Shown here: in pieces, positions 465-59,700 of the stretch
How the letters are laid out: the number at the start of each line of letters is the position of its first letter
How positions within the stretch are numbered: the first letter of the stretch is position 1
Assembly: GCA_008632985.1 (NCBI GenBank)
Contig: QPGO01000025.1
Span: forward strand, 1 to 64,000
Source: Psammoneis japonica
Taxonomy: Eukaryota
DNA: 64,000 bases
Direction: 5' to 3'
The notes under the pieces: model-generated
What the model was told of the DNA's origin: nothing
The model's input: only the letters and a program-made list of their open reading frames with translations
The model's database searches: none
Program-made: the position numbers and the translations under genes

Positions 465-3400
465 TTCTGTTGCCACCACATCAAGACAGCAACATTGAAA
501 TCGAACACCACCAAGGCAGGCAACCATCACTGTGACAACCGCTGCTGCAACAAGTGTGGGGTTCCTGTGATGTGGGCCCCCCACATCAACAACCCCCAAG
601 AAGTGCACAAGCAGAGAGGGGAGGAGGGGAGCAAGGGAGCTCACTCAAAGCCACTGTGCGCCGGCTGCACTGCAAACTTGTTCTCACATTCACCCAGCAT
701 GAGCACCAAAAGATGTTAAAAATTTTGTGTGCCCCAAAAAGGGGTGGGGCTGCAAATCTTTCTGACTTCCTGACGCAGCCACTTTTTGCTTCCGCCAGCA
801 TTGGTTGGCTGTCCACGACATGCGTGTGACCAACCAAGCACTTTGGTGGCCTCCTCCAGAGACAAGTGCAACTCCCACATTGGCCAGTGCTGACAATCTT
901 GTCATGTCTTCTTGTGGTTGCTCATTGGGGCCTGCATCACCCACTGTGGCTGCCAGCGTGTGCCCTGGGTGCAGCATCGCGTCTCTGTTGCTTTCTGCTT
1001 TCTCAAGGACTCCACCCAGCTGGGTGCTGTTTCAATTGGCAGTGTCTGCAATCAACATAACTGCTGGAGAAAAAATGTGCAGTTCAACTGTGGTTGTGGA
1101 ATTTCTGCAGCCACAGCTTTGTGTGGCAGCTGCCCACCGTTGGAGGCTGTGTGTCATCTGCTGTGGCTCTGGAGGTGCTGCCATGTTTGTTGCTTCCAAG
1201 GATGCACTTCATCTGGTGGTGCAAGCACCAGCAGCTGTGGCTGCAACTCCTGCTGGAACCATGCTTGAAGAGTTGTTGCCAACTGCTTCTTGTCACACCC
1301 TTGTGCCACACCAAATGTTGTCGTGCGGCGCTTGGCTGGCTGCAAATGACAGCCACACTGCCTTCTCCATCACACATGCAACCTCTTTTGTTTGAGCCCC
1401 AATGTGTTTGCAGAGTCCCAATTTCTTGGACCTGGTGTTCTTGCATCTGCTGCCATCAGCTGTGTGCCTCCTGTTGCTGCAATGCAATGTCTCAAATTGA
1501 CAGTGCAGCTGCTGTCAATGCCCAGATGGATCTTGTGGCCACCAGCTCACCAAACATCAAGCCCATTGTGTTTGTCATGGTGCTTGTGAGTGAGCCATGT
1601 GCAGCAGTGATTTGTGCTGGTTTGCAGCTGTTGTCTGCCAGGATGGCAGCACTTTCTGCCAATGTTTGAACCAGCTTGATCTGAGCCCCAAAGGTTTCTG
1701 ATTCTGGCACTTGTGCCTTTTTCTGAGCAGCGGTGGTGGTTGCCACATTCTTCCAATGGATGGATCAGGTTGTGCCCATGCCACTTGCTGCCTCTGCAGC
1801 ACCATCATCATCTGACAAACATGGGTGCTGCCACCACTGTGTCAGCTGGTGCCAAGTTGAGCCACAGCACTCACATTGTCAACTCCACTCTTTCGCGCTG
1901 ATCTGAGCAAAACAAACAGAAATGGAGCAATGCCAAGTTTTATCGCCTTCACCTGCCAGTCATCAAATCTCTTTCCTCCACTGTCAAAGCCATTGTTGAA
2001 CTAAGCTGCACCCCCTTGCTGTGCTCCCAGCCTGCCTGCCATCATTGGCATGACCCCACAGTTCCCAACAAAAAGAGAGCAGGGCAGCAAAGTCATTTCA
2101 GGAGACACTGGCCAGCCAGCATGCGCCCATGCTTGTCCAATGCTGAGTCATTCTGCAATGTTTTTTCTTTGCCCAATGTGCTTTTGAGGGGCAAAGCAAA
2201 ATGCCATGTGGCAAAGGCACCAACTTTGACTGGCAGGCTGCCATTGCCTCATTTTGCTGCATTGTCCACCATGTGGTGAATTTTCACCTTGCTCCACTTT
2301 GCTCAATGAGACTCAACAATGCTGTGGCTTGCCAGAACATCCCTTGGACTTTGACAACTTTCTGTTGGTTGGTGTTTTTTGGGCACAAGACTTTGTTGAC
2401 AGGCAAGATTCATGGAAAGCTGCCACTGACTTTTTGTTGTTGTTGTTGAAAACTTTGATGGATTGCCAGCACGTGTGCCTGCCCACCACTGTCAGAGATG
2501 TTTCAGACACATTGATGCCCCCTGTGTGTTTCTTTCTTAAGACCTGCACTGTCTTTGGACAGATGCCACATGGATCAGGAGAGGCTGTCAGCATGCCAAC
2601 TCTGTGAGTGTCAGTCAAACCCAGATGCCTGCATGGACATCTGCCTCTCTTGCTCTTTCTCACCAGCACTCATGGCTCATTTGGCTGCAGGATGTTCTTG
2701 ATGGTGTTTGCAACAAGCTCAGCATCGCTTGTCAACTTGGTTGTTGCCAGTCTGACAGAAAGAAGAATAAAATCAACAAAATGAATCAAAGAAAAAGACC
2801 GCCACATCATTTTTGCAGTGTGTTTTGGGGTTTCAAGCAGACAAAACCTGGTGCAACAATTGCATTTGGCAAATGAGGAGAATGGTGCATCAACCTCATG
2901 TGCATCAACTCAAAAAAGAAGCTCATGTCAGAGAGAAAAGGGGGCATTTTTCTGCAGCAGTCAAGCAGCACTGGCATGTTTCTCTGCTTTCTGACATCAG
3001 TGTGCGTCACTGGATGAAAAAGAGCTCAACTGCAAACATGATCTGCCCCCCCCCCCCCCCCCNCCCAGGTGAATGCCTTGGCATCACTCACATTCAAGTG
3101 CAAGCTGCACTCTTCAAGAATGTGGGACATTGATGAAAAGTGCTTGAGTGGCAAGCTTGTGCTTGCCTGGAGCATGGACAAACAAAGGTTTTTCCAATCA
3201 CCAGCCAAATCTTCATGGGACAGGTCACACATTTGGTCTGCATGTTTTGTGCTGACTGTGCGACATTGTTGTGTGCCCACATGTGCAGAATAGCACCCAC
3301 AATGTTGTGTGTGCAATGCTTCTTTTTTTGTTTTCTAACATTCAAAGATGTCATGCAAATCTTCCAGATCAGAGATCAAAAATGATCCCTTGTCTTGCAA

Positions 3401-3468
3401 CTCATTTGGTGCAAATGAAAGACAAAGATGCTGCAAAAGCAACAATGTTGCACCACTGATGTCTCATC
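465..3468. other. TpA/CpG-depleted hypermutated block D1 (decayed repeat, family not identified)
   Basis: About 7 TpA in 3 kb by hand count; CA/TG-rich; overlapping Tyr-free, Cys/His/Gln-rich ORFs in all frames. Confidence 0.85.
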
Positions 3469-3681
3469 GGACTAGTCTACTGGCAGTCACCAGAACGTTG
3501 AGAGTGCTTCTAGCTGAAGGGGCAGCAGTCTTGCCCTAGGGCTGCTTTGCCAGTGGATGAGTCGGATGCTTGGTGGGGCGAAAAAGGTGGTGTCTTTGTT
3601 GGGCGCAGTGTCGGTGAATGGTTATTGAGTTGTTGCAGGATTCATACATTCGGTTCCTATGTAAGTAATTCAAGGCTGTTG

Positions 3682-4986
3682 CTACAAGGACTGGATTGAT
3701 TCCCCATCGCTGTCATAATACTCACTTTCCTCTTCATTCCCTAAAAACCATTCTTTGGTACCTGCTTCTGTCAGAACTTTCCAGCCAGCGTCTATCAGGA
3801 TTTGAGCAACAGCTTCGTCGTCTTTGGCCATTTCCCAAAACTTTTCAGAGGCATTGGCCACCAAAATTCCAGACGGCCTTTCGCTTAGCCAACGGCGACT
3901 TGCGTCTGCCCAAGCCTGGAATCCATTCTTTTCAGCGCATTTTGTTGTGCAGTAACAGGGTGATGGTACGATACGGCAAGGAAGCTCAAAAGCAACATGC
4001 AATTCGATCGAATTGTAAACAGCCTTTTCCTGGTCACGCACTTCCTTGCCACAACCATAACATTGCTCAATGTATTGAACTTTTGAGGTCACAGTGCCAT
4101 CGGAGATGCACAATTTTGAATCGAAAGTCTGGTTTGGAATGTTAAGGGGGGGCATTTCTTCGTTGTTTGCATGTTCTCTCTTGCGTTTTCTCTCGGATGT
4201 TACTTTGTGTGCGTGAAGATCGAGAGTTCTCCAGGGTGCAACTCTTACCGCCTCCGCACCGGGCGACTTTAGGGAAGGCATGAAACTTCCAGGGTCTGCT
4301 TCCGACACTCGTCGGTAAAGCTCTTCAACGGTCCATTGGATCCGAGCATCGTGTTCGTCGAGGTACCGTCTACCAAGAATGATACCATGACGCGAGCTGG
4401 GTGAAATACCAAGACGGGAACTGGGTGTTGTTGAATTGTTTATAGCTTCAGGTATCCAGAGTACATAGCCAGCAGATATGAAGTGTCCAAAGAGATTGTC
4501 ACCTTTGGCCACCACCAAGGCACCGTTCTCACCACTCGGTTGTGTGATATCGATTGCTGTCATGATGACATGAGAATGATCCTCGTGCTTCTTCTTGTCA
4601 CGTCCCTCTCCCATGTCCCAGCCAAGACCATCGACCATTTGGTAGTACCAAAACTCGTCCTTTCCACTCTTCTTTGGCGCGATGGTACCCGAGACATTGA
4701 AATCCATTTCCGATGCTTGAAAGGCCGAAAGATTCGGAGTCGGGACAGTCCTGGCATCTGGGTTATCTTCGCAGCCAATCCAAGAGCCCTTCCAGTCGAC
4801 GCGATCCTCCTCGTCATTGACCCTTGACATGCGACCTTCCCAGATGAATAACGTGTCTCTCCAACATCCTGTCATGATTGTTTTTGTTGGATTTGACATT
4901 ATCTGATGACACTTATCTTCAACACCAGCAGAAGATTTGAGATTGAGATGATGTTGACTGTTGACAGGCAGCGCATCAATCATCAA
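3682..4986 (-). CDS. Hypothetical protein with C-terminal Cys cluster (CYGC...CYCTTKC); start uncertain
   Basis: 434-aa ORF with normal Tyr usage and acidic tail, lying between two mutated blocks. Confidence 0.7.
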   Translation of the reverse strand: MMIDALPVNSQHHLNLKSSAGVEDKCHQIMSNPTKTIMTGCWRDTLFIWEGRMSRVNDEEDRVDWKGSWIGCEDNPDARTVPTPNLSAFQASEMDFNVSGTIAPKKSGKDEFWYYQMVDGLGWDMGEGRDKKKHEDHSHVIMTAIDITQPSGENGALVVAKGDNLFGHFISAGYVLWIPEAINNSTTPSSRLGISPSSRHGIILGRRYLDEHDARIQWTVEELYRRVSEADPGSFMPSLKSPGAEAVRVAPWRTLDLHAHKVTSERKRKREHANNEEMPPLNIPNQTFDSKLCISDGTVTSKVQYIEQCYGCGKEVRDQEKAVYNSIELHVAFELPCRIVPSPCYCTTKCAEKNGFQAWADASRRWLSERPSGILVANASEKFWEMAKDDEAVAQILIDAGWKVLTEAGTKEWFLGNEEESEYYDSDGESIQSL

Positions 4987-5049
4987 TCTTCAACCTCGGT
5001 TTAGTCCAACTAGTCAAATGATACGAGGCTTTCTGGGCGTTCTCCGCCC

Positions 5050-7320
5050 ATCACTGCGCACTGTGTCACAAACAGCAGTCTCGACAACACCTTTGCAATC
5101 GATTGATTCTCTGCAACTTTCAGCTGCATGCTGTGGTTTTAGACTCATTGCATGTCAACTCAAAACCAGCCAGATGCCATTGGTCTCATCACAGGAGCCC
5201 ACCAAGAGTCTCGCAGGGTTTTGTTCCCTCACTGCTGCCCTGCCTGTCAAAGGTGCTGGCTGCCGCTGTGAAACTGAGAAAGATCTGACTTGACCAACCA
5301 GACAAATCTCCAACTCAGTCTCTGCAGGGACAACAGTCAAACCCATCACAACCTGAAATCTTCAGCTGAGCAATGCCAAAGTGGCTCTTAAGTGCCCTGC
5401 CTTGTGTGTGGCCAACAAACACGTCTCTCTTGCCATGGCGCAGAAGTTGAGGACACACGCACAAAAACAGAGTCACTCTCTGCATGTGACACAGCTTCAA
5501 GTGACACATGTCAACTGCACCACTCAAAAAAAAAGCTGCCAAAGAGCAGCAGGCTTCCTCTTCCCAAAAGAGCTTGATGCACCCCGCAGTCTTGTGTCAA
5601 AAGCATGAGGAATGTCCACGCCACCTTGCCATCTGCAAAAAATGCTTTGACACATTTGAGTGCTGTTGCAAGTGGCAGCACACACTCTGCAGGAAAGCAA
5701 GCAACCACCAACAGACAAGCCACCATGAAATGAAAAAAGGCTCCTGCTGCAGCCTCCACAGCTGTCTTTCTGAAGTCAGGGCACAACGCTGCAGGCCCAG
5801 ACAATCTCAGCAAATTGATCGAGGACACCCCAACCATTGGGATGCAGTGAAAAGAGAAAGTCACAATTTGCCCTTTTTGGCTTGTCAACTTTGTTGGATC
5901 TCATGCTGGGAGCTGTGCAGAATGTGCACATCATGATTCCAACACATGCAACAGTGCACAATTGTCACACAAAGGCTTGCACCATGAGAGTGAGCAAACT
6001 GCCCTCATTGTTGCACTGCAGCAGTGACCAGCTTGCATTTGTCTCTGCTGTCTTTGCTCTCTCCCCTCTCTTCTTTTCAAGCAAATCATTGCTGAGCATG
6101 CAGACAGTTCAGTGCCACAAGCTGCAAGACAGACAAATTGCGCACATTCCAGACATGAGAATTTCACAGCTCTGCAGCTGATCTCACAGGCAGCAGCACC
6201 ACACAAAGCTCAGCACTCAACCTGCCACTTCTGTGGCTGGGCAGGATGGCTGCATGTTGGGCAGAGGCTCCAGCAGCTCTTTGTGCTTTGTTGGCTCCAT
6301 GCCAGCAAGCGTCAATCTCCTTTCTTGGAAATGAGTGGGCATTCATTGAAGATCTCTCCCATTTGTTGTCTGTGTTTCTCTGTGTGCAAGGTCACATGCC
6401 AAGTGTGCAGAAGATGTCATGCACCCATGTGTGCCTTTTTTTTCATTTTTCACTGCTCTCCCAGACTTTCACTGGTTTGACTCACCCTGTTGGCTGTGCC
6501 CAACTCACAAAAACTTTTGCCAAAAAGCTCCCCCCGCCATTTCACATCATGGGAGGGGAGCAACACATGTCAAAAAAAAAAAAAGAGCTCCATTTGTTTT
6601 GTGCTCTGTTTGCCACTCCTCTTGCTGCACTCTGTGTGTTGTGCATTCTTTGCCTCCAGACGAACAATGGAACACACAATTGTTCCTCATTCCACACATG
6701 CTCCATGTCCTCTGGTGCCACACAGGTGTGTGGCAGAAACTTCGAGACAACCATCTGTCAATGTCAGAAATGGAGTGCTGGATGGATCATCAAAGCTGTG
6801 TTGTGTCAACAAGTGTTGGAGAAATGCAAAGCTGACTGCCGTTCTTGCTGGGCTCTTCTGTGGTGCTGCACCAAGTTGTTTGAGACAGCACAAAAACAAG
6901 ACTCCTTTTTGGATGCTTTGTCATGGCTCTGCTGACAAAAAAAAATCAAAGAACAATCTCAAGACAGGAGCAGTTGCAAGCCACCTTCTCCAATTTGAGA
7001 TTCTTTCCTTGATGCTCATGCAACAAACAACCACAACAGAATGTGTGATGTGTGTTGAGCTCAACAAAAGAGCAATGCTCCAGTGCATTTTCAGATGCTG
7101 TTGTTGGCAGTGGTGCAGTGGCATGACAACACAGCAGCTGTTGGTGTCACACATCAGATCTTGGATGTGGTGTGAGCCACCAAAAGGTCCAAAATGAACA
7201 AGGCAGTTGTTACAATGATGGCCCCAGTTGGGCATTTCATGTGCAGATTTTCTTGTGTCACAACTGCCATGGCTGACACTTTGTCAAACAAAGCTGTGTT
7301 CAAGGTGCACTTTGAGCGTG
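5050..7320. other. TpA/CpG-depleted hypermutated block D2
   Basis: Only about 2 TpA seen in 2.2 kb (TTAG near 5140, TTAA near 5388). Confidence 0.85.
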
Positions 7321-7498
7321 ACTTTTTACCGCATAACACCAGGCACCGGTGGGGTGTGGGGCCCTCTGGCTCTACGATGTGGATGAACGTCACAAATGAG
7401 ATGCATCGTGTTAGAACATTTGCAGAAAAATGGTAATTAGCATAAGAAAGTAGCAGAAATAGTCTAGCTGATACCGCACGGCGGACACCTCATTGAAA

Positions 7499-11748: not shown

Positions 11749-14700
11749 ATGTCGCCTTTAAAGAAGCGGCGCCGATCGGATGATTCTGAATCTTCGACGG
11801 AACAACTCGAGACTTCGATGGTGTCAGTCGACTCTGTGGATTTCGAAGCATCCAACGCGCAGAATGTGAGAGTCGTTGTGCGATTAAGGCCCCTCTCCTC
11901 CAAGGAACTTAATGAACTTTCAACTGAGTCGATTAGCTCGGACCATTGCGATGTTGTGGTTGACAAGAATCGAAGATTTCAATTCGATGCCGTCTTTGGA
12001 CCCAGTTCAACCCAGCAAGAATTGTACGACGGCACTGCAGGTGACATGGTGAAGACAAATGTCTTCAAGGGCTTTAATGTCACGATACTTGCGTACGGGC
12101 AAACTGGATCGGGGAAAACCTTCACGATGGGGACGAATGGAGGAGGGAACGGAACCGCAGCAAGCAGTGGAGATCTCTCGGCGCCAACACAGGGCGACGG
12201 CGTCATTCCACGTGCCGTTTATGACCTCTTCAAGACAAGGCAGTCTATGGAGGACGGGGAAAACCGTGTCAAAGTAGAGATGTCTTACCTCGAAATTTAC
12301 AATGAAGAAGCTCGCGACTTGCTTCAAGACGACAAGACAGGATCCTTGTTGAATATTCGCGATGGAAAGGATGGAGTCATTGTTCAGAATCTCTCCCTTG
12401 TCGAAGTAAAGTCTCCAAAGGACGTCAGTGACCTTATGGAATCAGCCGCTCTTCGAAGGGCGACGGCCAGCACAGCTATGAATTCGGTTTCTAGTCGGTC
12501 ACATGCTATATGCACGTTGAACGTCACTATTTCGCCATCGTCGAGTCCCAAGGCGTTGCAATCTTGCAGCGAGGTGATTCGTTCGAAGTTGACACTCGTT
12601 GATCTTGCGGGATCTGAGAGGATCAAAAGGACAGGTGCCGAAGGCCAACGTATGAAGGAGGGTATCAATATCAACAAAGGTCTTTTCGTCCTAGGTCAAG
12701 TGGTTTCGGCACTTTCTGAACTTGGTCAACAAAACAACGAGGCGACCGGTAGAACAGCGCATTCTCACATTCCATACCGCGACTCGAAGCTCACGCGTTT
12801 ACTGCAGGACTCTCTCGGGGGCAACTCGCGCACAGTCGTCGTCGCGTGTGTATCTCCTGCTAGTTCGAATATTGACGAATCGATCAACACGCTTCGGTAC
12901 GCAGAAAGGACGCGTAATATTCAGAACTCAGCTGTACGAAATGTTGTCGCTACAAACAGCGTATCTATTGAAGAAGCCAATGCTCTTCGTAGAGAGAATC
13001 AGATGCTCAAGCTGAAACTCCTTCAAGCCCAGGCTAACTTGCCCGCTCCAAAGATTGCGTCTCACACTGTCACTTCAGCACCCTTGTCATCAGGAGAGTC
13101 GGAGGTACGTACAACTTTTCTCACTTTGTTACTGTGCAAATGTCTTTCTATCACAGGAATGTTGATATAATCTCTCGTCGTTTGCCTCTCTTTGCAGAGT
13201 CTTTCGTGTCTTCTTGGCGTGAGTGACGAGAAGTTGGAGCTAGTGTCAAGATTGCGGGCTCGCATCGCTTCCCTAGAATGCAAGGTGGAGCAAATGGAAA
13301 GTCAAGTTCAATGTGCACATGAGGATACGCTGGAAGCAACGCTACGTGCTGACAAGTGGGAGCTCAAGTATAACCAGCTTTTTTCTTCAGTTGCTGAGAA
13401 GAATATGAGTGTCACACTTGACGAACCGGTGAACTCAGACGACTCGCTTGTCACCAGAATGAGGAAGGAGATCGCTGACCTTAAATCCCAGTTACAAGAA
13501 GCGCAGACGGATGCTGCTGTCGCGCGAGCAACGGCCGCCGCAGTTGTTGTGGGAGGAGGAGATATTGCAAACTTGTCGGAGATGATCGTGTCCACTGAAA
13601 GTGAGCTCGACCTTGACACACAAGGAGTTGATACTGATAATGCTAACCAAGAGAAGTGGACCGCAGAGCTAGTATCGATGAGTGGGCAGATCGAGCAGAA
13701 AGAAGCCATGGCTTCGCAAATGAATAAGAGCGTGAGTGTATGGATATGCTACGGTCTCATTTCGAAAACGCCGTTCACCAACTTCAGGAGGAGGTCAACG
13801 TATTGGCCTCTGAAAGAGATGGCCTCTTGACAAAAATCAACGATGATGTTGCTGAAAAAAGTGATTCTAAAGCAAGAACCCGTATTAAAGAGCTCGAGGC
13901 AAAAATTGCTGCATTGAAAAGGAAATCCGAAGAACACAAGAAGACTCTTCGTTTGCGAGAGCAAGCCGAGCAAAAATGCATCCGATTGGCGGAAGAGATT
14001 AAGGAAGACAAAAAACGTCGAGCCGAGCTGCAGCGAAAGCTAAAAGAGGAATCTCGGGAAAGGAGAAGTGAACAAAAGGCGGCAAGGGTACACGCTTCAA
14101 AAATGCTACGAGATCGGCAGAAACTGGAATACGAGTTGAAAAAGGTAAAGGATGCAGCCGCTAGGCAAACGGCCGTTCTCAGGAGGAAGAATGCCGAGGC
14201 ACTTAGTAAACAAAAGCAGATGGCTGAGCAGCAACGCAAGCGCAACGCGGCAGCATCCATTCGTCAGAATAGGAGCGGTCGTGCTAGAGGAAGTAGCGGC
14301 GACAGAAGACAAGACGAATTGAAAGCTTGGATGAATCGCGAAATGGAATCGTCTCTGGCCCTTAAGAGAACAAAGAGTCAAATCTCAGAACACACGACGA
14401 TGCTTCAAGAAATGATGTTAAGGAGGAGGGAAATCTGTTCTGATGACAACATGAAAAAGGAGTTACACGCCCTTGACAGAGAGATTGAGCTGCGCAGAGG
14501 CGTGGTTAAGCAACTGGAAGAGGCTGTGAAGGAACATCAGAAAGTTCGGTCTGAATCTTCATCGTCTTTAGGTTTCGAGGATAGTCATACCTGGAGTAAT
14601 CTCACGCGGACTGATGCCAAGTTTGTATTCACATGTGCTTTTGAACATCTTCTGGCAAACCGTGAAAAATCAGAGAACCTTGAAGCGTCTCAGAAAGATG

Positions 14701-15889
14701 TCGTAGCGGACGCGGTTAGAGATGCAGTAGACAAGGAGAAGCGACATGCCAATGAAACTATTGCCAAGCTCAAGATGCAGCATTCAGAAGAGGTGATGAC
14801 GTTGCTTTCGTCAACAAAGAGTGCCGTGGAGAACGACGTAAAACAGAAGGTATTGGAGTGCTCCAGCAGTGACGATCCAGACTTCCGAGCGGCAGTAGAT
14901 GAAATGATAGGATCATATTTGAAAGGATACGACGAAGTGGGAGAGAAAATGAAAAATGACTTACAGTCGATAAAGAACGAACACGATGGGATGCAGAGAC
15001 TGGTTGGTGAAGTTGCGCAGACTATGATAGCCAGCAACGAGGTCGCTGTTGATTCTGAGCCAAAGAAGAAGAAAGCAAAGAAGCCATCACGTCGATCTTT
15101 GGTTATTGCCGAGGAAGAAGAGGAATGGTTTGAAGACGAAGAAGACATTCCGTTTGAGGACAGTGATGATAGTGACTGGAATCCAGAGACTCCAGCCCGG
15201 AAGAAGCTTAAGCGTGAGAAAGAAATCGAAAAAGCAAATGCGAAGTCGCAGTTGAACTTTTCCAGAGCCAATAGGAATAATGCGGTTGGCGTGAACGAAG
15301 TAGAGAACCACGAGAATGGGGTACATTCGGAAGAGCTTGAAAAAATGAAGGTGGCTGAGTTGCGAGATCTTTTGCGACAGCGGGGGCTCGCGGTGTCCGG
15401 AAAGAAAGTAGATTTATTGAAGAGATTGCGAGGCAGCGGATTTGCTTCACAACCAGGCCATTCGAAAGACGCAGCAGTCGACGCGGAGACTTCGAATTCG
15501 AACGATTCGGAAAAGGGAAGTCTCGTACGAAGCATCAGTAGCTCTTTCGATTCTAGTGACCGTGGCTCCTTTTTGAAGTCGTCGGGAAGGAAAATCAACT
15601 CTCAGAATCGCCCATTGCCGTGGCTAGCAAAATCCAGCGAAAGCCACTTGGCCAGAAGGCCTTCATGCCGACAGCAAACCAGCGAGCAAATTCGCGAACA
15701 CAGGGCAAAGGCACTACGTTGCAGCAACCCCTTCATGCTCGGAAGCAGCTGGAGAACAATTCAAGCATTGCTTCCCCCCCGAAAAAGACAGCCACGAAAA
15801 AACTCTCTGTTAGTGCCAAGAAGCGCCGTCGAAGAGACATGGCAAAGGCAATGATGGCGGCGGAGAAAGCATGCCAAGGCATGAACTAA
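11749..15889 (+). CDS. Kinesin-4-like motor with coiled-coil stalk and C-terminal SAP domain; intron 13105-13197; apparent frameshifts near 13729 and 15585
   Basis: AYGQTGSGKT, SSRSH, DLAGSER and HIPYRDSKLTRLLQDSLGGN motifs; SAP motif MKVAELRDLLRQRGLAVSGKKVDLLKRL. Confidence 0.9.
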
Positions 15890-19384: not shown

Positions 19385-19649
19385 GTTTTCGCTCAAGTGT
19401 GCAGCCGATGTATTTTTTTGTTTCGTTTTTTTTGTGTGACGAAACAACCAGATGAGACCAAAAGAGGCACGACTGCAACCATCCCCGCCACGTCACCAGG
19501 CAATTTTATGATTACATTCATGTACGATCATCACATCCCGAGGTGACGTCAGACTCGGAGAAAATAGAAACCCCGCATTTATTTTTGAAATCAACAACCG
19601 TCTTTCTCATGCTTTCCGAAACCAGTCCTAAAAACAACCAATGGATTAG

Positions 19650-39899: not shown

Positions 39900-40152
39900 A
39901 AAGTTTTGAGAAGACAACAGTTTTGGTACAAAAACGTGCAACGGAATTGGGAATCTCGCTTGGTGTATTGCTCGAGGCCAGTGGACGCCGACCGTTTTTG
40001 CGCGCTTTTGCCAAAACGCAGAATGCAGGGCAGGTACTACTACTGTTGACTGTGCTGTAAGGGCCTACTCCTATGGTATCTTCTACTCCTATGAAGCAAG
40101 ACCTCGCTCATCAAATCATATCAGAGCCATAGGGCCTCTAAGATAGCGTACC

Positions 40153-43914: not shown

Positions 43915-43984
43915 ATTTGACACAAACACTTTTTAGACCACCATGTTTCCAGTGCTCTTGAGTGCAAATGAACAAAACAACATG

Positions 43985-44844: not shown

Positions 44845-45111
44845 TCCGGTTGTTCTTTTGGGTCATGATAAGTTCTCTGGATTGTCACCATGTCGCGGTA
44901 AAGAAAAACTTCAAACAAAAACTTTGAACCGAACAGGATTTAATTTTCGAAATTTTGGAAGTTTGTGCTGTACGCCGACCGTTTTTGCACGGATTTCCCG
45001 GCACAAAAAATGAAGGGAGCGAGATGCCGCGATGGCATTCCGAGTTCCTTGGCGAACACAGCGTCGATCATTTGCAGGCTACGCTCCCAACTCAGAAAAG
45101 AAGTAGCAACA

Positions 45112-46272
45112 ATGGCAGTTTCATCTCAGCAGCACGTGTACCCGTCATGTGAACTATATGATCTGGTTATAGACATGGATTGGGATGCGGTGACGATACA
45201 TGCCAAGAAACACCCGGTAGATGCGCAATGGGAAGACCACGATGGGCGCGATGGAGGCGAAACGCCACTCTATCTTGCTTCTCAGTACGGCGCTCCTCTT
45301 GAAGTCATCCAAGCCATCATTTCAGCATATCCACAAGCACTGAGAGTACAAAACAGAAATGGCAATTCTCCTTTGCATATCGCATGTCACTACGACGTGA
45401 ATGTCGAGATTATCAGAGCCTTGGTGGAGGCGGATCCTGGCACGGTGTTTCTCGGAACAAAATGGGGGAAAACGCCCATGAATGCCCTTTACGATGGAAT
45501 ATTGAAACGAGCTGATCGCACTGATATCTCAACAATTGAAGACGGGCAATGGGAAAAGATCATGGTTTTGTTGAGAGCTGTTGCCATGGAAGAGAGTCTC
45601 GTCTCTTTGGATGGGGAAATGCTGTATGTGCATGCTGCAGTATCGCTAGGAGGATTTGGCTGTCCGCGCCGGGTATTTGAACTTGTCGTCGATCGCTTTC
45701 CGGAACAAGTATTCAAGAGAGATGTTCTAGGACGCCTGCCTATTCACCTTGCAGCTGGGCCCATTCGGAAGATTCGATTTCGACATTTTGTTCGTCGCAA
45801 CAACTCAACACGCGAACAGCATGTGTTTGCAAGACTGCTTAAAGAATACCCACAATCTGCACAAGTTGTTGATCCTCAAGGGCGTTGGCCTCTGCACATT
45901 GCTCTCGGCAATGGTCGCACCTGGGAAGGAGGCGTGGAAATGCTGTTTCAGGCTGCGCCACGCGCAATTTCTGTGGTTGATCCAGTCACTGGTCTATTCC
46001 CGTTCATGCTTACAGCTCAAGAGAAGAAGTCCGATCTAGACACTGTGTTTCTTCTGTTACTGTCTCAGCCTGACGTTTTGAACTCTTGCCGACCAGTCAA
46101 AGAATCGAAAACGAAAGATCTTATTACGATGCTAAGCTTTGAAGACTTGCATGACAAGTGGCATTGTGCAGTCACCAGAACCATGCCACACCGGCGCATT
46201 TCTAATGCAGCTTGCGTTGCTATATGCTCCATTTGTGTAGGAATTCTAATGACATCGAGACGATCGAGATAG
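45112..46272 (+). CDS. Ankyrin-repeat protein
   Basis: GETPLYLA, GNSPLHIAC, GRLPIHLA and GRWPLHIA repeats; FPFML tail motif. Confidence 0.85.
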   Translation: MAVSSQQHVYPSCELYDLVIDMDWDAVTIHAKKHPVDAQWEDHDGRDGGETPLYLASQYGAPLEVIQAIISAYPQALRVQNRNGNSPLHIACHYDVNVEIIRALVEADPGTVFLGTKWGKTPMNALYDGILKRADRTDISTIEDGQWEKIMVLLRAVAMEESLVSLDGEMLYVHAAVSLGGFGCPRRVFELVVDRFPEQVFKRDVLGRLPIHLAAGPIRKIRFRHFVRRNNSTREQHVFARLLKEYPQSAQVVDPQGRWPLHIALGNGRTWEGGVEMLFQAAPRAISVVDPVTGLFPFMLTAQEKKSDLDTVFLLLLSQPDVLNSCRPVKESKTKDLITMLSFEDLHDKWHCAVTRTMPHRRISNAACVAICSICVGILMTSRRSR

Positions 46273-49846: not shown

Positions 49847-52589
49847 TTAGACCGAGACAACCCGAGGCCGAAAAATCGAGCTTGAAAAGGATTGAGAAGT
49901 TCCTGTGGTCGAGACACTCCTGTCGTCCCGTTGTCGTGAATCGCAGCGGTCTTTTCCGTGCGAGGATGAACCCTTGCGAGACTTATCATCCATTTTCTCC
50001 AGCCTATCCAAAACTGAGCTCTTTGATTTCGTTTCATCGTGCAGCATCTGCTTCAGGTGCTCGCGCTTCTTTCTGGCTTGTGCCAAAGTATGTTTCTTCT
50101 TTACAATTTCCCTCTCTTTGGTTACTCCCGTCTCCTCTGCAAGTTCTGTGAACCATCTTCTTAGCGTGTTTGAGGTTCGAGAAGTAACGCTCTGAACCAT
50201 ACTGTCATCATCGGTTTCGTCCTCTTCATCTCCAAATAATATCGAGTTCGCAACGGACTGGTAGGTTGAGCTAGCAGAAGTAGAGACAGATGATTCGTCG
50301 TCGAAAAAGGTGGTACACCGCGATGAAGACGAGCCATCGCCAATTGCATACAATTGTTTCTCGTGTTGTCCGACATGGCCCTGTGGATGGACTGCCTTGT
50401 ACAGGCTTCTGGCAGATTTCATGCTATGATCAATTTCTTTCTGCTCTCGTTCCATCTCTTTCACCATTTCTTTTTCCTCCCGGAGCATATTGATTGCCTC
50501 TTCTGCTGTATACATGGTCTGCAGCGAAAAGTATCTTTCAGCCCAATATGTGTCCATGGTAGAGACTGACGCTTCAGACTCGAAATCCCCAAGCAGGCTT
50601 TCTTCAACTCCAGAGTTCCGGCGGTCATGTATGGAAGAGTCGTCCGAAAAGTCAACGGAAATGTGACTGCCACGACTGCTGCGTCTTTGTGGCCGATGAG
50701 ATGACGTCTCCTCACCGCGGTAATTCTTCAGTGCCACTGCAGTTGTCCGCTTCTCGGGGCGTTGCTTTGTGGGCGATTTGCGACTGTGTCTACTTGAAGA
50801 TTCTGGGTCGCCTGGTTTGCGACTGTGCCTGCTACTTGAAGATTCTGGGTCGCTTGGTCTCCTTCGGCTCTTTCGTTTGGATGTTTTAAGAGACTGATCC
50901 TCTGATTCATCGACAGTTTGTCGGCTCCGACGTGACGAGGTGGTGGCGACAGACTTGGAGCTTCCTGGAATCCTCCGTTTGAGAGAGGCATCCTCCAGCG
51001 CATTCAGAGAGCGTTCCTTTCGACGTCGCCTTGACTTTTTGGGCTTTGAAAGCGATTTCATTAACACTTCATCAATAATTCGCCGGCTCGGAGGTGATGA
51101 ATCTGGCGTAACCGACGGGAGGTTACTTGGATTTCCTATTTCACCTGTTACGTCCTGCAACGCAAGCATCGTACGTTCCCTCTGTACACGATGCGACCTT
51201 TCTGATTCTGAAAGAGTCTGATTCAAAGATTCACTGACTATTCGGCGGCTCAATCGCGCTGTCGCTGTCGCCGTCGCAAGAGTTTGGTGAACATCAGTTA
51301 CGTCTGTGATGGTCGAACAATCATCCTTCTGTACCTTCGCGGTGCGGTCGTTTCGGCGACGATGCCTCCTTTCGGCTTCTACAACATGCTGTTTTTCAGA
51401 TTCGTTGGAAACTGGGTGACGGCTTGACATAGATGACTCTGTAGCGACCGTTTGACACCTATCACGATTTCTCACTCTGGGAGTAGCGTCCTCGGACTCG
51501 TTCTCAGCGCGCTCTCTTCGACGACGATGCGATGTGGGATTATTGGACCACTGCGCCACTCGTCACCAAAAGAGCTCCGTAGAGGTGTGATCGTTTGTAA
51601 TTTATTCAGTGGAACTGCTGAGTTAGCAGTGATGCGCGAGGTGCGCGCAGAATCATCGGAATTGTGGATATTCTCACACTCCCCGGCGGACGGATCACGG
51701 ATGGATGTTCAAGGTGAAGGAACTGGAGTGGTCTGGACGTAACTGAGTCTTGAAGATGATTCGATGTAAGCGTGTGTGCTTGATGTGGTGCGTGCCACGT
51801 GATGTCAGCGTTGTGACGTTTGACGTTCTGAATGTTGTCTTGTTGAAGATTGAGCTCTTCCCCGCGGTGCAGACATGCGTGCGAGTAGGGAAGGATCAGC
51901 TTTCCGAGGTGAGCGAGCGTGCTGAAGGATCTGAAAGTTGGGAATCGAACCCTTGGCCTCCAACGTTATATTGCAACCAAGTGGGATTATTGGACCACTG
52001 CGCCACTCGTCACCAAAAGAGCTCCCCGTAGAGGGGTGTTGATCGTTTTGTAATTTATTCAGTGGAACTGCTGAGTTAGCAGTGATGCGCGAGGTGCGCG
52101 CAGAATCATCGGAATTGTGGATATTCTCACATGCGACCTTTCTGATTTTGTAAGAGAGCGCCCTCTGCTTTCACTAGAAGTACCATGTTTTGTCGAAGCA
52201 AAAGCCGAACGCACAGAACGAACTGAACGCACGGAACGACCGTCACTTTCTCTTCTACTCCGGCGGCTTGTGAGCGAGGCTTCATCTCCGTTTCGACTCT
52301 GAGAAGACCTTTTCTTCTTCGTCCTTTTATGTTGAGATCTACGATGCAGCTCCTTCCTCTCTGTTTCCCTTCTCTGCAACCATTCCTTACTAGTTGACAT
52401 ATAAGCCGAGGTAGAACCGGATTCGACATCTTTTATACGGTTCTGGTCGAATTCTCTGGTGCTGCCGCTTTTTCGGTGATACTGTAGTTGCTGAAGCTGC
52501 TGTAGCTTGTGCGTTTTCGCTTGTTTTTCGCGAAGGCTGCGCAGTCTTTGCCTTAAAACTCGGAGATCTTCGTTCGATTGTTCGGCCAT
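49847..52589 (-). CDS. Ser/Arg-rich coiled-coil hypothetical protein interrupted by a TRIM; paralog of 53262-54800
   Basis: Removing 51533-52131 plus one target duplication gives one 713-codon ORF (..SERSH-RRRRERAE..); shares LRQRLR, ISVDFS and YWxERYF motifs with its neighbour. Confidence 0.85.
51533..52131 (-). mobile_element. Young miniature LTR element (TRIM-like): LTRs 52131-51981 and 51678-51533, 5-bp target duplication TGCGA
   Basis: TG..CA ends; PBS-like TGGTTGCA after the 5' LTR; GGGGAG before the 3' LTR; LTRs differ only in homopolymer lengths and the last base. Confidence 0.92.
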
Positions 52590-53261: not shown

Positions 53262-54800
53262 CTACCTACCGGTGGACAAAAGGCTTGCCTCACCGAGGAT
53301 CTTTGGATGAAAAATCGCGCTCACAAAGGACCGAGAAGTCCCCATTGTCGACACACTCTCGTCGTCCCATCCGGCTTGAGAATCAGCACAACTATCCAAG
53401 AGAGAGTCATTATCGTGAGGTACTCCCTCCATTTTCTCAAGCTTATGCAGCAGTCTCGCATTCTGTTCGGTTCGTTTCGCCAACTTTTTGCGGAGCACGT
53501 CGCGTTCCTTTTTCGCTTGAGCCAGATTCCGCCGCATCTTTAGCTGTTCACGCTCAGTTTCTGTGCCTACTTCGTTTTGGAGGTTGGGGAACCATTTGTT
53601 TACAGCACTCGAAATACCTGAAGTCACACTCCTCCCTGTAGTGCTGGCCGCATCATCGCCATCATGAACTGACGGCTTTGAGAACATTGAGCCTACAATG
53701 GAACTGGCATACGTAGAGACACTTCTATCATCCCACGTGGCTTGCGATGCCGTCTCATCATCATTTCCATAAGGGTCTTTCTCTAGACGCTTCGAATTCT
53801 CCTTGCCCAGCATGTGCCGTTTGGAGAGGCTCTTCTTTAGAAGAGTTCGCTGCTGCTTTGCCTCTTCCATGTCCCTTTCCAACTCCCTCTTTTCTGCCTC
53901 CAGCAATCTCATCATTTCTTTTTCTTCCCGAAGCATCTCGAGGGCTTCTTCTGCTGTGTACTCAGACTGGAGCTGGAAGTAGCGTTCGCCCCAATATGTT
54001 TCAATAGAGGCATCATCGTTGAAGAGCGAATCATTGTCGTCAAGATGGCTTTCTTGGTTTCCACAAGACAACTCGCCAGAGACATTTCGTCTGCCAGCAT
54101 GAGAGGAGAGCGAAGGTACTTCAGAGAAATCCACAGAAATGTGGTTGAGACGTTTTGTAGGCTTTGGTTTTTCATAAGTTTTGCACTTGCTTCCCTCGTC
54201 AGACGAGGGCTTTTTCGAGCGCTCTTTGGAGTTCTTCTTGGAGCTGCGACTACGTCGCTTGTCTTTGCTATGTGATTTCTTAGTCTGCTTGAGAGAGAAT
54301 TCCTCAGAGTCATCAATGGTCTGGTGGCTTCGACGTGACTTCTTTGGAACATATGGTTGATCTGCAACGTCGATATTTTTGTAGCTGGAACGCCGAGGCT
54401 TGGGCGGTGACACCTCGGACTCGTCAACGTCATGGAGGTTGTGACATCGGAAAGATCCATGTTCAGACTTAGAAAGGGAGCGGTTACTGCCAAGGTCCGT
54501 TGTTTGAAGCCCGGAGGAACGCTGGGATTGGCTGTCGCTGGACCGCCTTGCTGGTTTCTTTCTTGATCTACGGCTTCGCTCTTCTCGCTTCTTTTCTCTC
54601 CTCTGTACCCACTCTTTAGCTGCGGCGAAATCAGAAGAAGGCGCTGCCGATGCCTCGCTGCTATTCTTCTTCACCTCTGCGTGATCGGTCTTCTTCAAAG
54701 CCGGTTTCTTGACTTGCTTTCGACGAAGCTTTCGAAGCCTCTGTCTCAAGCTTCGGAGCTCATCACTTGGCTGCTCGTTCGTTACTTCCTCAGCGGCCAT
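53262..54800 (-). CDS. Ser/Arg/Lys-rich coiled-coil hypothetical protein (tandem paralog)
   Basis: Intact ORF of about 512 aa; YWGERYFQLQSEYTAEEALEMLREEKEM matches the neighbour. Confidence 0.8.
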   Translation of the reverse strand: MAAEEVTNEQPSDELRSLRQRLRKLRRKQVKKPALKKTDHAEVKKNSSEASAAPSSDFAAAKEWVQRREKKREERSRRSRKKPARRSSDSQSQRSSGLQTTDLGSNRSLSKSEHGSFRCHNLHDVDESEVSPPKPRRSSYKNIDVADQPYVPKKSRRSHQTIDDSEEFSLKQTKKSHSKDKRRSRSSKKNSKERSKKPSSDEGSKCKTYEKPKPTKRLNHISVDFSEVPSLSSHAGRRNVSGELSCGNQESHLDDNDSLFNDDASIETYWGERYFQLQSEYTAEEALEMLREEKEMMRLLEAEKRELERDMEEAKQQRTLLKKSLSKRHMLGKENSKRLEKDPYGNDDETASQATWDDRSVSTYASSIVGSMFSKPSVHDGDDAASTTGRSVTSGISSAVNKWFPNLQNEVGTETEREQLKMRRNLAQAKKERDVLRKKLAKRTEQNARLLHKLEKMEGVPHDNDSLLDSCADSQAGWDDESVSTMGTSRSFVSAIFHPKILGEASLLSTGR

Positions 54801-55357
54801 TTGCGGCAGCCTTAGACAGGATACGGTAGTGCGGCAATACAGAGGAGGATCTGTTGTACCGTTACAATGAATAGCAGGGCTTTGCAATGCCCCCTCAGAC
54901 AATCTCACCCGTCATTACTCTTGGCAACGACATGCCCAACCAGCAACCAGACGCACTTGAGTTTTCCTGAGTTTTTCCTCATACTTCAGAATGACTCGTC
55001 AGTCCTGTATTGGGATCAATGACCTTTCTCGTGAATTGACTTTTGTCTTTCGTATGGTTTCACAGTCATCGTTTCCTAAGTGACTAGAAAGGTAGCATTG
55101 ATATTGGGCTTATACTGAGATTCTCTACCGAAAACCACGACTCGTCAAAATGACTGGCATAACGTAGATTGGAAAGACTTTCGAAAGTCAAAATTGTCTT
55201 TTCAAGTCATATGACCGTCTTAATCCGTTCGGGAGGTGTGAACGAAGTGTCATGCTCACGTTTTCCTCGAGATTTATGCCGACCTCCCCATCAGTGTTTC
55301 AACAAAAGACGTGCACAAATTACCGAAACAAGAGTAAGGAGGCTCAAAATTTCAGCC

Positions 55358-56152: not shown

Positions 56153-56789
56153 CAGTAATGGGAAAAGGTTGGTTCTATTGGGACGTGATCGCTGTGCAAC
56201 AATGCAAGTGCTTTACACTAAATTTAGGATCATTTTGCACTAGTCTAAACGCTTTCATTGAAGCTCTTGATGGAAACGGTTGCACCTGACTGTCACTAGG
56301 GCCCTACTACAAAATCTTCCTGACATCGAATGACCAGAACAGCGTTTTGGCAAGATACAGCTTTCAGTAGGACACCTCAACCGCGACCTCAAGCGGTGGG
56401 TTAGATAAAGGATGGGTTGACTTCATTCAAAATTTCAGTTTTTGGTCTGACAATTTTGTTTAGGAGTCGATAAAACTGTTATGGGCGTACCAATGCCGAG
56501 CGTCCAATTGGAATGACCGTACATTGATAAAGCTCTAGCAACGAATTGTTTATAAATGCGTCAATCGGCACGGTGGATTTTTTAGTCGTGTCCAGCGTGA
56601 ATGTAATATTGTGCCTTGAAAAGATGAATGATTTCGTATGTATCATACCAACAGCGGCCTAAGAACTTTTTTCGCATTTAGAGAAATAGAGCAATGTCAT
56701 CCTCTCTCTGAACCATAGGAGTCAACAACGGATGAATTTAAGACATTGAACATGAATAAAAGTAATGAAGCTTCAACGTCTATTCCCTC

Positions 56790-59700
56790 CGATGGTGACC
56801 AAAAATTTGGCAATCTGCAGCAAGTTCAGCCCCGTCCACCCCAGCCATTTTTTGACTCTCATCCATCGTGTGCACAACAGGGGCCAGCTGGCAGCAGCAG
56901 CCATGCTCTGTGTGTTTTGCACACCCCATGCTTGCTGGGAGACACCTCAGAGGTGGCTCCGCTTTTGCGCTCCTCTTCTTCCTCCACGAGCTCCCCCAAG
57001 CCCAGAGGGGCAGAGTTTGGCCCGCGCTGCTGTGTTTCTTGAAAGTCTCTTTTCCTTTTCTTCGCTGGGTGCTGCTCTGCTTTGCACTGCATTTTTGGCC
57101 ATCAAGGCAGCCAGAGAGCTTTTTTCATTCCTCCTTCTCTTTCAAAACTTGTTTTTTGTGCCACCGCCAGCTGCCACTCTTTTTGTGGCGGAGCCCAAAG
57201 TGCCTGCCTGCTGCAAAGGGTGGCAAGGAGAGCAAGAAGAAAGTGATGCAGCCAGCCTGTCTGCGCTCTTTTTGTCAGCTGGCAATTTTTCAATGCAGCC
57301 AAGAAGGGACAAGAGAGCCACATCCATGCTGAGAGCAGAAAAGCGGGGCAGAGCCATGTCAGCAGCACGAGAGAAAGCGGGAAAACAAGCACAAAAGAGA
57401 GGCGAGAGAGAAATGAAGTCTCGAGAGGAAGGAGCCGCAGATGAAGGTGGGCAAAGAGGGTGTCAGAAGATGGCTTTTTACCCATTCCACCCTTCCACCA
57501 AGGTCCTCACTTGTGCTGTGTGGCAAGCCGCTCTTTTTGTCACCAACTTCCCCCCTGCAGATGCCAGCACGGCCTGCAGGTGCTGCAACAGTCACTCAGT
57601 CTGATGAGGAGTCCATGAACCGCGTGGGAACATTCTGTGTGCTGCCACACGCGATGCTGCGTGGCCACTTTGGTGGTCCATCATTGAAACACTGGGCCCC
57701 CTCAGTGGTCTGTGCCACTCTGGCTGACAAGTTTGTCCAGACCCCGCCGGTCTTCTTTCCACCCCCCCCCAAAATGCCCTGCCAATGTTGGCGTTCAACT
57801 CATCCCCAGTTCCACACCACCAGAAGCCCCATCCACCCACCAATTTTTGGCCATTGACATCAATGTGCCGACAGCTCTGGCTCCCGCGCCTCCTGTGCAC
57901 CTGGCTTGCCTGCCCCTGAAAAGAACCTGTTGAACAAGGCTCACCTCAGCAGTGCATGGGACAAGCTCCTTAGCTGAGCCTGACAAAATTAAGGCAAGTG
58001 GCAAGAATTCAAACAATGACTCCTTGCTGCTGTCTAAATGGCAGATGAGTCTCCACTCAGAGACCGTCACAGGAGCCGAAAGACGTGCAAGTCGGTGTGA
58101 TGGGCTGCTGTCATCGTTCTTGTGAGCCTTGTGGCTCGAAAGCAAACCACATCATGCGCGAACGCGCGGAACTGAAGCACACAAAACTGTGCACGGCAAA
58201 CTAAACAGCACGCGACATTTCACGCGCACCTGAGTCCTGCTCAAATCCTGTCACTCCCCAGTTTGCTTGAGGAGTCACAGAAACAGATTCGACTTCGGAT
58301 GGAATGAAGTTCCAAAACATGAGGGGATGGAGAAGGTTCCAGATTTGGGAGCAACCCCAATGCTTGCTGAGAATGTCAGCAGGGTTGCGGGAGCCTTCGA
58401 TGAAGTGGAGCTCAAGGCAGCCAGAGGCAATCGCCTCGCGCACACGATGGAATGAGAGAGCGGTGTGTCGCTTGTGCAACTTGGAGTGCAGGATGGTGGC
58501 ACTGTCCACAACTGACTTGTTGTCACCGAACATGCAACTGATGTCACGGATCGGGATGCCGAGGTGACACAGGGTGATGCGCAGGTCAACAATCTGCTCA
58601 ACACAAGTCCTTGCGGCAACAAATTCAGACACCCGCAGGTCGCAGTCTCCACGGTGGCTTGCTTCTTAGAGAACCAATCAGCCGGGCATTTGTTGAGGAA
58701 GTGGAGCATTCCCATGACAGAGCATCCGGTGAGCATGCAATGGTGCAAGTTTGCATTGACGCAGTGGGTGGCAGTGACGAACTTGCCAAGGGGCGGTGGA
58801 GCGTCCTTCGGGATCATCTCTTCTGCTTCGCCGCACACAGAGTGCATCCACTCACAGGCCGGAGCAGGGAGATCCGAATGGTCGGGCTCTTCTGTGCGAA
58901 CGCGGAGAGCGCCGTGTCGCATCTTGGAGAGGTGCCCACAGATGCATTTGGCACGATCCAAGTGGCCTTGACGGGGCGCAGCTCGGAAGCCAGACAGTGA
59001 CATGACGGCCGTGGCAATGTCAATTCGACTGAGAGACACTGCCCATTGGAGGGAGCCAACAAGAGACTGGAGCTGTTGAATGCCATCGGGTTCCAGCAGT
59101 TTGGAAGTGTCCAGTTCGGGGTGGTCACCCTTTTCCAGAGGGGACAGGACGTTGGTGGCAGGTTTCTCCCCAAACAGTCATGTGCAGCTGTCGACCATGC
59201 GTTCGATGCACTTGCGCGGAGACAGACACAAGGTGCCGTCAGGATCCTGGGAGAAGTCGCAGCCTGGGTGGAACTCAATCGGTCCCGCACCCTTGAGCTT
59301 GAACTTGTGCTTCTCCATGAGAGCATCAACGAAAGGCTGAGGATCCTTCATGGCAATGGCGAGGTCATCCACATGAACGGCAACACATTCACAGTGGTCG
59401 CCATTCCTGTGCACCCAAATGTCGGGTTCGGAGCGGCAGGGGAAGAAACCTTCAGCTCGCAGGCAGTCGGCGAAGCACTCGTGCCAGTGGAGGCCGGAGC
59501 TGCGCAGTCCACATGGGGCCTTGTAGATGACAAGAATGTGGCCTTCGAGTTTGCCAAATTCGGGTCCGCGTCATCTGCGCGCCATTCCAACGTTGTTGAT
59601 GCCATCAATCAAGCAGGGCTGCTCCTCTTGCCTCTCCTTTTCACCTTCGACCACCTGGGCAGTGTTGGGGGCACCACTTCCACATCTTCTTCTTTGGCAT

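Follow-up and report, generated by a model that had tools for sequence, protein, structure and literature searches.

Six stretches of a 64,000-nucleotide piece of diatom-like DNA have been almost emptied of the dinucleotide TpA, and the few TpA sites left in them raise the question of what removes this dinucleotide and how the agent chooses among its targets. The sequence (hereafter the window) comprises positions 1 to 64,000, forward strand, of contig QPGO01000025.1 from Psammoneis japonica (assembly GCA_008632985.1). An earlier note, made from the letters of the sequence, had proposed that the remaining sites are survivors of a mutator that prefers A in T-A-pyrimidine (TAY), and had likened this mutator to the tRNA-editing deaminase TadA. 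Our data support a preference of this kind in modified form: the blocks have probably undergone a region-limited hypermutation of silenced DNA in which TpA becomes TpG or CpA most readily where the A is followed by a pyrimidine and then by a base other than A, through what would be a DNA adenine deaminase.

The window is gene-dense, eukaryotic and about 48% G+C, and the six stretches in it that are nearly free of TpA are also poor in CpG. Block borders were drawn from TA positions, the tight set totalling 20,848 bp. The observed-to-expected ratio (O/E) of TA was 0.05 in the blocks, which hold 60 TA, versus 0.56 elsewhere in the window; CG O/E was 0.36 versus 0.97, CA O/E 1.81 versus 1.12 and TG O/E 1.74 versus 1.13. 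Discrete regions that lose TpA and gain CpA and TpG amid normal surroundings characterize the hypermutation of the chlorarachniophyte Bigelowiella natans (Mettrop et al., bioRxiv 10.64898/2026.01.13.699255), and the six blocks have the same form. From left to right they are block A (459-3472), with the strongest CpG loss of the six and a TA density of 2.65 per kb against 37.7 in the background; block B (5023-7326), poor in TA and CG, with 1,820 bp (5391-7210) that lack any TA; block C (19648-20895), again poor in both; block D (30964-39185), the largest; block E (42389-44811), poor in TA; and block F (56782-60418), equally TA-poor and with the least CpG loss. A single N stands at 3063 in block A.

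The flanks of the remaining sites are strongly skewed. Thirty-three of the 60 are YTAR, with a purine (R) after the A on both strands; 26 are mixed, with a pyrimidine (Y) after the A on one strand only; and 1 is RTAY, the GTAC at 32588-32591 (TA at 32589-32590). The 1,662 TpA outside the blocks divide into 327 YTAR, 872 mixed and 463 RTAY (chi-square 50.2, p=1.2e-11). These figures bear out the approximate hand count in the earlier note (about 30 YTAR, about 20 with TAY on one strand and a sole RTAY near 32588), and its range of 716-59530 contains all 60 sites. The 1:2:1 expectation against which it set that count was naive, the background being still less favourable to YTAR, and the skew itself stands. 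The skew is seen in every one of the six blocks: YTAR and mixed sites number 4 and 4 among the 8 TpA of block A, 2 and 1 among the 3 of block B, 2 and 1 among the 3 of block C, 14 and 15 among the 30 of block D (which holds the one RTAY), 6 and 3 among the 9 of block E, and 5 and 2 among the 7 of block F. It stays when any one block is removed (jackknife p between 3.7e-9 and 3.8e-11) and when looser borders are used (80 TAs, 37:40:3, p=1.3e-10).

Normalizing these counts to the tetramers available before mutation gave the same direction throughout. We modelled the loss of a site as the sum of two strand hazards, each set by the base 3' of that strand's A (position +1). The hazard ratio of TAY to TAR was 3.0 (95% confidence interval (CI) 2.25-4.15) with ancestral tetramers taken from the window background, 2.4 with a uniform NTAN prior, 2.4 with a prior from present block base composition, 5.1 with a prior from an intact paralogue of block E, and 2.8 (p=6e-12) with a prior of 2547:6669:3312 from 80 intact metagenomic relatives of the block D element. 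These relatives served as an ancestral prior, not as a replicate, and the search patterns that found them favour intact copies; TA depletion was found in none of the 80, whose lowest TA O/E was 0.38. Likelihood-ratio tests against a uniform rate gave chi-square values of 36-86 across four priors, and a fit with a separate hazard for each base at +1 ordered them A (0.47) < G (1.06) < C (1.95) <= T (2.54). In a steady-state model, TAY was removed 6.8 times as fast as TAR (95% CI 4.1-11.6). YTAR and RTAY rates therefore do not come out equal after normalization, whether by survival (2.4-5.1) or at steady state (6.8). The direction of the TAY preference is robust; how large it is, from 2.4 to about 7, varies with the model used.

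A direct view of the process came from a pair of sequences within the window. Because transitions preserve purine/pyrimidine class, we reduced the window to two letters, purine and pyrimidine, and searched it against itself; the search was repeated with all YpR steps written alike. The stretch 42884-44962 proved to be a hypermutated and decayed duplicate of 28731-30791, so that a 2-kb host gene segment (a GT1 glycosyltransferase and a convergent open reading frame (ORF)) occurs twice, 14 kb apart. The copy at 28731-30791 (+) has normal TA and CG content and intact ORFs, one for the glycosyltransferase (28743-29729; Pfam Glycos_transf_1, E=1.8e-26) and the convergent one at 29803-30630, and we used it as the ancestral proxy for block E. 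Over the 1,984 columns of the alignment the two copies are 81.6% identical; they differ by 282 transitions, 83 transversions and 30 indels, 27 of which are insertions in E. A plain blastn comparison among the blocks found no common repeats except within block D, and missed the duplicate because the intact copy lies outside the blocks. The small repeat pairs of block D contain too few ancestral TAs and were left out of the paired data.

Forty-seven of the 60 ancestral TA in this pair became TG or CA, 5 stayed TA and 8 changed otherwise, and the reverse change (TG or CA in the intact copy, TA in E) was found at 4 of 290 sites. By flank, sites still TA numbered 0/21 for RTAY, 0/21 for YTAY, 3/12 for RTAR and 2/6 for YTAR; that is, 0/42 with a pyrimidine 3' of the dinucleotide against 5/18 with a purine there. 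Counted per adenine and symmetrized over strands, A>G changes affected 20/37 TAC, 16/36 TAT, 8/24 TAG and 5/21 TAA (pooled, 36/73 TAY versus 13/45 TAR; Fisher p=0.035). Sorted by the base 5' of the adenine, A>G stood at 49/118 for T, 31/281 for A, 33/285 for C and 17/288 for G, and the changes at TpA adenines comprised 49 transitions and 7 others. The pair establishes the direction of mutation, its restriction to TpA, and an order of flanks that matches that of the TAs left in the blocks.

The base at +1 is one of two determinants, and the second, an equally strong one overlooked in the earlier note, is an A at +2. Among strand contexts of the block TAs, A occupies +1 in 49% (22% in the background) and +2 in 56% (26% in the background), and base use at +3 to +5 matches that of the background. 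TAGN takes the form TAGA in 23 of 33 cases and TAAN the form TAAA in 30 of 59. Adding a +2 term improved the model (chi-square 27, p=6e-6), giving relative rates at +1 of 1 for A, 2.2 for G, 3.6 for T and 3.8 for C, and at +2 of 1 for A and about 2.5 for C, G or T. Apparent survival rises from 0.027 for sites with no TARA strand to 0.19 with one and 0.47 with two. In the paired data, sites still TA numbered 0/46, 1/9 and 2/2, respectively (p=0.006), both ancestral sites with two TARA strands being TTTAGA and both having survived. An A at +2 thus protects as much as a purine at +1, and TAAA and TAGA are the refractory contexts. TTTAGA also recurs among the block TAs, at 5140, 36950, 43912 and 43934, with CTTAGA at 44109.

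Contrary to what had been assumed, not every remaining TA is a survivor. Seven TAs of the tight block E fall within the alignment; three of these are TA in the intact copy (TTAG, TTAG and ATAA), and the remaining four match TCAA, TTGA, TCGG and GCAG there and are probably the result of ordinary transitions at TG, CA or CG. From block to block TA density is alike (1.3-3.7 per kb), and CpG loss differs six-fold (-ln survival from 0.32 in block F to 1.88 in block A); the even TA density suggests a minimum at which re-creation balances removal. Re-creation from the blocks' own TG and CA predicts YTAR, mixed and RTAY sites in proportions of 22:52:26, and the observed proportions are 55:43:2 (chi-square 43.9, p=3e-10). 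The claim that A in T-A-pyrimidine is preferred consequently holds well for sites, once joined to the rule at +2 and to the caveat on re-creation, and moderately for strands.

Which strand is read, and on which side, is the harder question. The remaining sites alone cannot separate a pyrimidine read 3' of the A from a purine read 5' of the dinucleotide, because the two are opposite-strand views of one another. The changed strand in the pair leans to the 3' side: RTAR sites became CA in 6 cases and TG in 2, and YTAY sites became TG in 10 and CA in 7 (together 16:9, p=0.11). With rates taken from the block TAs, the log-likelihood of the paired choices was -33.7 under the 3' model and -39.2 under its mirror image. 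The products left in the blocks lean the same way, RCAR plus YTGY exceeding RTGR plus YCAY by 1404:996, compared with 1514:1304 in the background (p=6e-4), at ratios of 1.64, 1.85, 1.34, 1.37, 1.12 and 1.27 in blocks A to F. Reading on the 3' side is favoured over its mirror, and the pyrimidine 3' of the A in the original proposal stands to that extent, with a modest 16:9 lean and an equally good fit from a model that carries no strand information. TpA-derived changes in the pair gave TG 25 times and CA 22 times, in random order along the DNA (runs test z=0.18), which points to many independent hits on both DNA strands.

Relics of transposons or of host genes are recognizable in three of the blocks. 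Block F contains a Copia-type reverse-transcriptase relic (59181-59570, -; Pfam RVT_2, E=2.9e-10), block E is the dead duplicate of the host gene segment, and block D contains the relic ORF of a recombinase-like element protein (32717-33424, -) with 1,447 homologues at E<=1e-3. We take the family of this last relic to be the tyrosine recombinases, from the motifs RPGEYT, ARSLRAGGAMALL and RYLH in the alignment consensus, Pfam giving it no name; one homologue carries an RVT_1 domain, which suggests a DIRS-like element. The relic ORF has 0 Tyr where its homologues average 5.1, and 6 Arg against 19.8, and its 14 consensus-Arg columns now read R four times, H four times, C four times and Q twice, as expected from conversion of both TA and CG to TG or CA. 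A Pfam scan of the 110 block ORFs of at least 90 aa returned RVT_2 and three weak sub-threshold matches, including zf-RING_5 (E=3.6e-4) and CNRIP1, and a relaxed scan of 12 ORFs gave no recombinase name for the block D relic. The suggestion that TAY matters as the Tyr codon has no bearing on the rule, since the process hits non-coding relics on both strands.

The borders of the affected regions are sharp. A 434-aa ORF between blocks A and B (3682-4986, -; no Pfam match) has normal TA and CpG, so that the change from affected to normal DNA takes place within a few hundred bases. Tandem repeats of about 326 and 350-430 bp (30797-32600) at the left end of block D are affected, and the border cuts a repeat unit, half of the first unit lying within the TA-poor zone. 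Just beyond the sharp right border of D stands an unmutated repeat copy (39586-39687, +), whose mutated counterpart lies at 32187-32289, and between block D and the end of the intact paralogue of block E lie 170 bp, yet this paralogue too is unmutated. These unmutated neighbours (paralogue, ORF and repeat copy) indicate that targeting follows the state of the locus, not homology.

Portions of block D are highly repeated in the source genome (contigs compared over 30500-45500), and their copies differ chiefly by transitions, found at 834 differing places, compared with 266 for transversions. The unmutated, TA-rich segment at 39017-40050 that adjoins the right border of D shares 97-base and 65-base pieces with the mutated block. 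Its summed contig depth is about 100,000, where single-copy DNA has about 60, and its bin 39017-39517 is very highly repeated; the segment could represent a recent insertion from the same family of elements.

CpG has decayed in the same blocks. Among 117 ancestral CpG in the pair, 85 became TG or CA and 18 were retained, a pattern of the methylation type. By 5' base, C>T at CpG affected 26/66 ACG, 13/44 CCG, 21/54 GCG and 29/68 TCG, with no clear effect of that base. A block-wide fit proved unstable, reverse-complement tetramers disagreeing (GCGT 55 versus ACGC 22), and no flank rule for CpG loss was established. As CpG loss varies among blocks and TA loss does not, we treat them as separate processes acting in the same silenced DNA. 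The CpG-derived changes in block E (42884-44943) are skewed by strand, with 53 TG to 32 CA (binomial p=0.03), compared with 25:22 for those derived from TpA.

We consider these observations best explained by region-limited TpA hypermutation, and hold this account to be probable. The blocks would consist of silenced sequence, namely remains of transposons and a defunct copy of a host gene segment, to which chromatin state may direct a putative DNA adenine deaminase. This enzyme would convert A on either strand to hypoxanthine, which is read as G, so that TpA becomes TpG or CpA, and a pocket sensing the bases at +1 and +2 would make loss fastest with a pyrimidine after the A (C about equal to T), intermediate with G and slowest with A, with an A at +2 slowing it about another 2.5-fold. 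Refractory sites would accordingly be T-A-R-A, chiefly T-Y-T-A-R-A, where the context occurs on both strands, and the TpA that remain would be a filtered population, some never mutated and some re-created from TG or CA by ordinary transitions. CpG decay to TpG or CpA would be a separate outcome of cytosine methylation.

Several points weigh against this account. The size of the preference varies with the model, from 2.4 to 6.8; the evidence consists of 60 block TAs and one ancestor-descendant pair with 60 ancestral TA, all from a single 64-kb window; and the ancestral tetramer counts are proxies, the block E pair excepted. Per adenine, the +2 contrast in the paired data is not significant (11/33 versus 35/81, p=0.40). 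A model without strand information accounts for the paired choices no less well (log-likelihood -32.6 versus -33.7 for the 3' model), and of the 32 sites for which an asymmetry is predicted, 18 agree with the 3' model (p=0.30). Among individual stretches of background the product-tetramer ratio runs from 1.03 to 1.58, once an end segment of 58 bp and 5 tetramers is set aside, and block E comes out at 1.12. A scan of 171 ORF translations from the window revealed no deaminase domain, and a flank bias in the repair of hypoxanthine would produce a pattern identical to that of a flank bias in the mutator.

The points on strand choice are those that a symmetric reader would predict. Here the flank rule would be real and the reader would not be a TadA-type, single-strand enzyme; a double-stranded site of four to six bases would be recognized, with R-T-A-Y preferred and T-Y-T-A-R-A refractory, and either adenine changed at random, as by a dimeric enzyme or through a symmetric modification of TpA. 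The model without strand information is the best of the three on the paired choices (-39.2 for the mirror image), strand choice is random along the DNA, and both of the erased dinucleotides, TpA and CpG, are self-complementary. The lean of mixed sites to the 3' reading (16:9) speaks against it, as do the product tetramers, which lean the same way in five of six blocks, significantly in A and B. Rates per adenine also differ by the +1 base (p=0.035), and by the base at -2 there is no such excess (RTA 27/75, YTA 20/45). We regard the symmetric reader as unlikely, if the most credible of the alternatives.

A further step from the symmetric site would be a single chromatin-guided system, common to stramenopiles and rhizarians, that erases CpG and TpA alike, with the duplex site R-T-A-Y fast and T-Y-T-A-R-A refractory. 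It might consist of a dual-specificity deaminase of ADAT2 type or of paired symmetric base marks, in the latter form 5-methylcytosine at CpG and a putative mark on the adenine of TpA, both deaminated. Amphioxus ADAT2 bears comparison: it is described as deaminating DNA in E. coli, both C to U and A to I, with the motifs TCG for cytosine and GAA for adenine (PMC10354150). It is thus a eukaryotic tRNA-deaminase subunit that acts on DNA, and its cytosine motif is a CpG. Its adenine motif as given there differs from the T-A of the blocks, and C>T at CpG in the blocks shows no clear dependence on the 5' base. We think a single system of this sort improbable.

Still less probable, in our view, is that TpA adenines are damaged whatever their flanks and that hypoxanthine opposite T is removed better before purines or an A-tract. 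The data give net loss by context, in which damage and repair are inseparable. The effect is limited to +1 and +2, as would be expected for the footprint of an enzyme's active site, though that of a glycosylase would be similar.

Error-prone synthesis of the polymerase eta type is very unlikely. Deamination of methylated CpG would here lead to patch repair in which, as in the second phase of immunoglobulin somatic hypermutation, a low-fidelity polymerase wrongly places G opposite T at WA motifs. The blocks that have lost TA are indeed those with CpG decay. Polymerase eta, which shares with the process described here a preference for A after T, also hits AA and gives many transversions. In the blocks AA is spared, A>G after A (31/281) being about as frequent as after C (33/285), few changes at TpA adenines are other than transitions (7, against 49), and TA loss is equally complete in blocks whose CpG loss differs six-fold. 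TA is one of the two WA motifs tied to this polymerase in somatic hypermutation, as described in PMC7884765, and the B. natans preprint reports the same TA signature without a C>T component (10.64898/2026.01.13.699255).

We give very little credence to ADAR-like editing of element transcripts followed by reverse transcription, in which the DNA pattern would be a fossil of edited RNA. ADARs need double-stranded RNA and favour a 3' G, and in our pair TAG is slow (8/24, against 20/37 for TAC and 16/36 for TAT). Blocks D and F do derive from retroelement-like sequences. Block E, however, is a duplicate of a host gene segment that acquired its indels and mutations where it stands, the changes fall evenly on the two strands in interleaved order (25:22, z=0.18), and non-coding tandem repeats are affected, with a block border that cuts a repeat unit. 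A U directly 5' of the edited A is favoured by ADARs, as the B. natans preprint notes (10.64898/2026.01.13.699255).

The weakest alternative, that there is no mutator and the skew reflects chance, a compositional artefact, biased birth of TAs or selection to keep particular ones, can draw on the re-creation of at least four of the seven checkable block E TAs and on the proxy nature of the ancestral priors, but is barely credible given that re-creation predicts proportions far from those observed, that the skew holds across five priors, each block and the jackknife, that the E pair yields the same rule, and that the blocks are decayed and non-coding.

Hypermutation specific to TpA was first reported in 2026 from one chlorarachniophyte, the main text of that report giving no particular enzyme and no motif beyond TpA, and our literature search found this B. 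natans preprint to be the sole report of TpA-to-TpG/CpA hypermutation. In the preprint, TpA was the site of 230 of the 231 de novo changes found in two integrated viral regions; the change of TpA to TpG or CpA was seen in mutation-accumulation lines, and an adenine deaminase was proposed (10.64898/2026.01.13.699255). As there, the changes in our window are region-limited A:T-to-G:C transitions confined to TpA and yielding TpG or CpA by strand, with long-term TpA depletion and gain of CpA and TpG in clusters that include transposon-type genes, the remaining genome being untouched. The differences are several. The host here is a diatom-like stramenopile and not a chlorarachniophyte, the best named hits of two genes being diatoms at 40-59% identity; TA O/E is 0.05 and near-saturating, against 0.45 in the B. 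natans viral region; the targets are remains of transposons and a duplicate of host genes instead of integrated viral DNA; and activity here is read from fossil sequence, there from living mutation-accumulation lines. CpG has decayed in the same blocks here and is absent from the main text of the preprint, and that main text contains no occurrence of "context", "flank" or "trinucleotide", whereas the blocks follow a flank rule. With the window, a kind of hypermutation described once before gains a further case from a second eukaryotic supergroup lineage, and a saturated signature in a diatom-like stramenopile suggests a wide spread across SAR lineages.

The flank rule adds a four-base biochemical fingerprint (T-A-Y-not A fast, T-A-R-A refractory) that narrows the search for the enzyme and could distinguish a TadA-like reader of single strands from a reader of duplex DNA. 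TadA acts on tRNA loops or single strands. Like TadA, the agent here requires a T (U in RNA) directly 5' of the edited A, and wild-type TadA likewise has a pyrimidine at +1, its published dependence being on U-A-C-G(A) (PMC8052359, PMC12296453). TadA-8e is described as acting on UA without clear downstream preference (PMC12296453). In the blocks, T serves at +1 as well as C does, and any base but A is accepted at +2, G not being singled out. By analogy, then, the T-A-Y-not A rule seems nearest to wild-type TadA at -1 and +1 and identical to that of none of the enzymes compared. The comparisons that had been suggested, with TadA and with polymerase eta, thus come out unevenly: TadA agrees at -1 and in the pyrimidine at +1, polymerase eta fits poorly, and the likeness to TadA is one of analogy, no TadA or ADAT gene being tied to the signature.

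Fungal repeat-induced point mutation (RIP) resembles the process in its defence-like transitions in a dinucleotide context on repeated or selfish DNA, its dinucleotide-skewed relics and its sharp borders. RIP changes C to T, creates TpA and mutates both copies of a duplicate. We rejected it as the agent: TpA is destroyed here, not created, and the intact copy at 28731-30791 is unmutated, its GT1 domain still recognizable. The pair of intact and mutated paralogues indicates that the process, unlike RIP, tracks chromatin or locus state and not sequence homology. Alignment in purine/pyrimidine space offers a practical route to the unmutated source of such relics.

Long open ORFs of the window encode, among others, a kinesin motor, an LCIB/theta-type carbonic anhydrase, the GT1 glycosyltransferase, ankyrin and RING/UBC proteins. 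The closest named relatives of the carbonic anhydrase (about 36-43% identity) and of the kinesin (47-59% identity) are from diatoms; the searches with these two proteins returned no near-identical relative, and a search of the window for tRNA genes found 0. After the kinesin motor ORF (11749-13170, +) comes one with KIF21A-like and SAP domains (13740-15854, +); the two probably form a single gene, divided by an intron or frame change. In a normal portion of the window, the ORF at 16609-17331 (-) carries an Endonuclease I domain (E=3.5e-18). Two further ORFs (49847-51559, -, and 53262-54908, -), of 570 and 548 aa and outside any Pfam family, are paralogous, their DNA similarity falling into several pieces.

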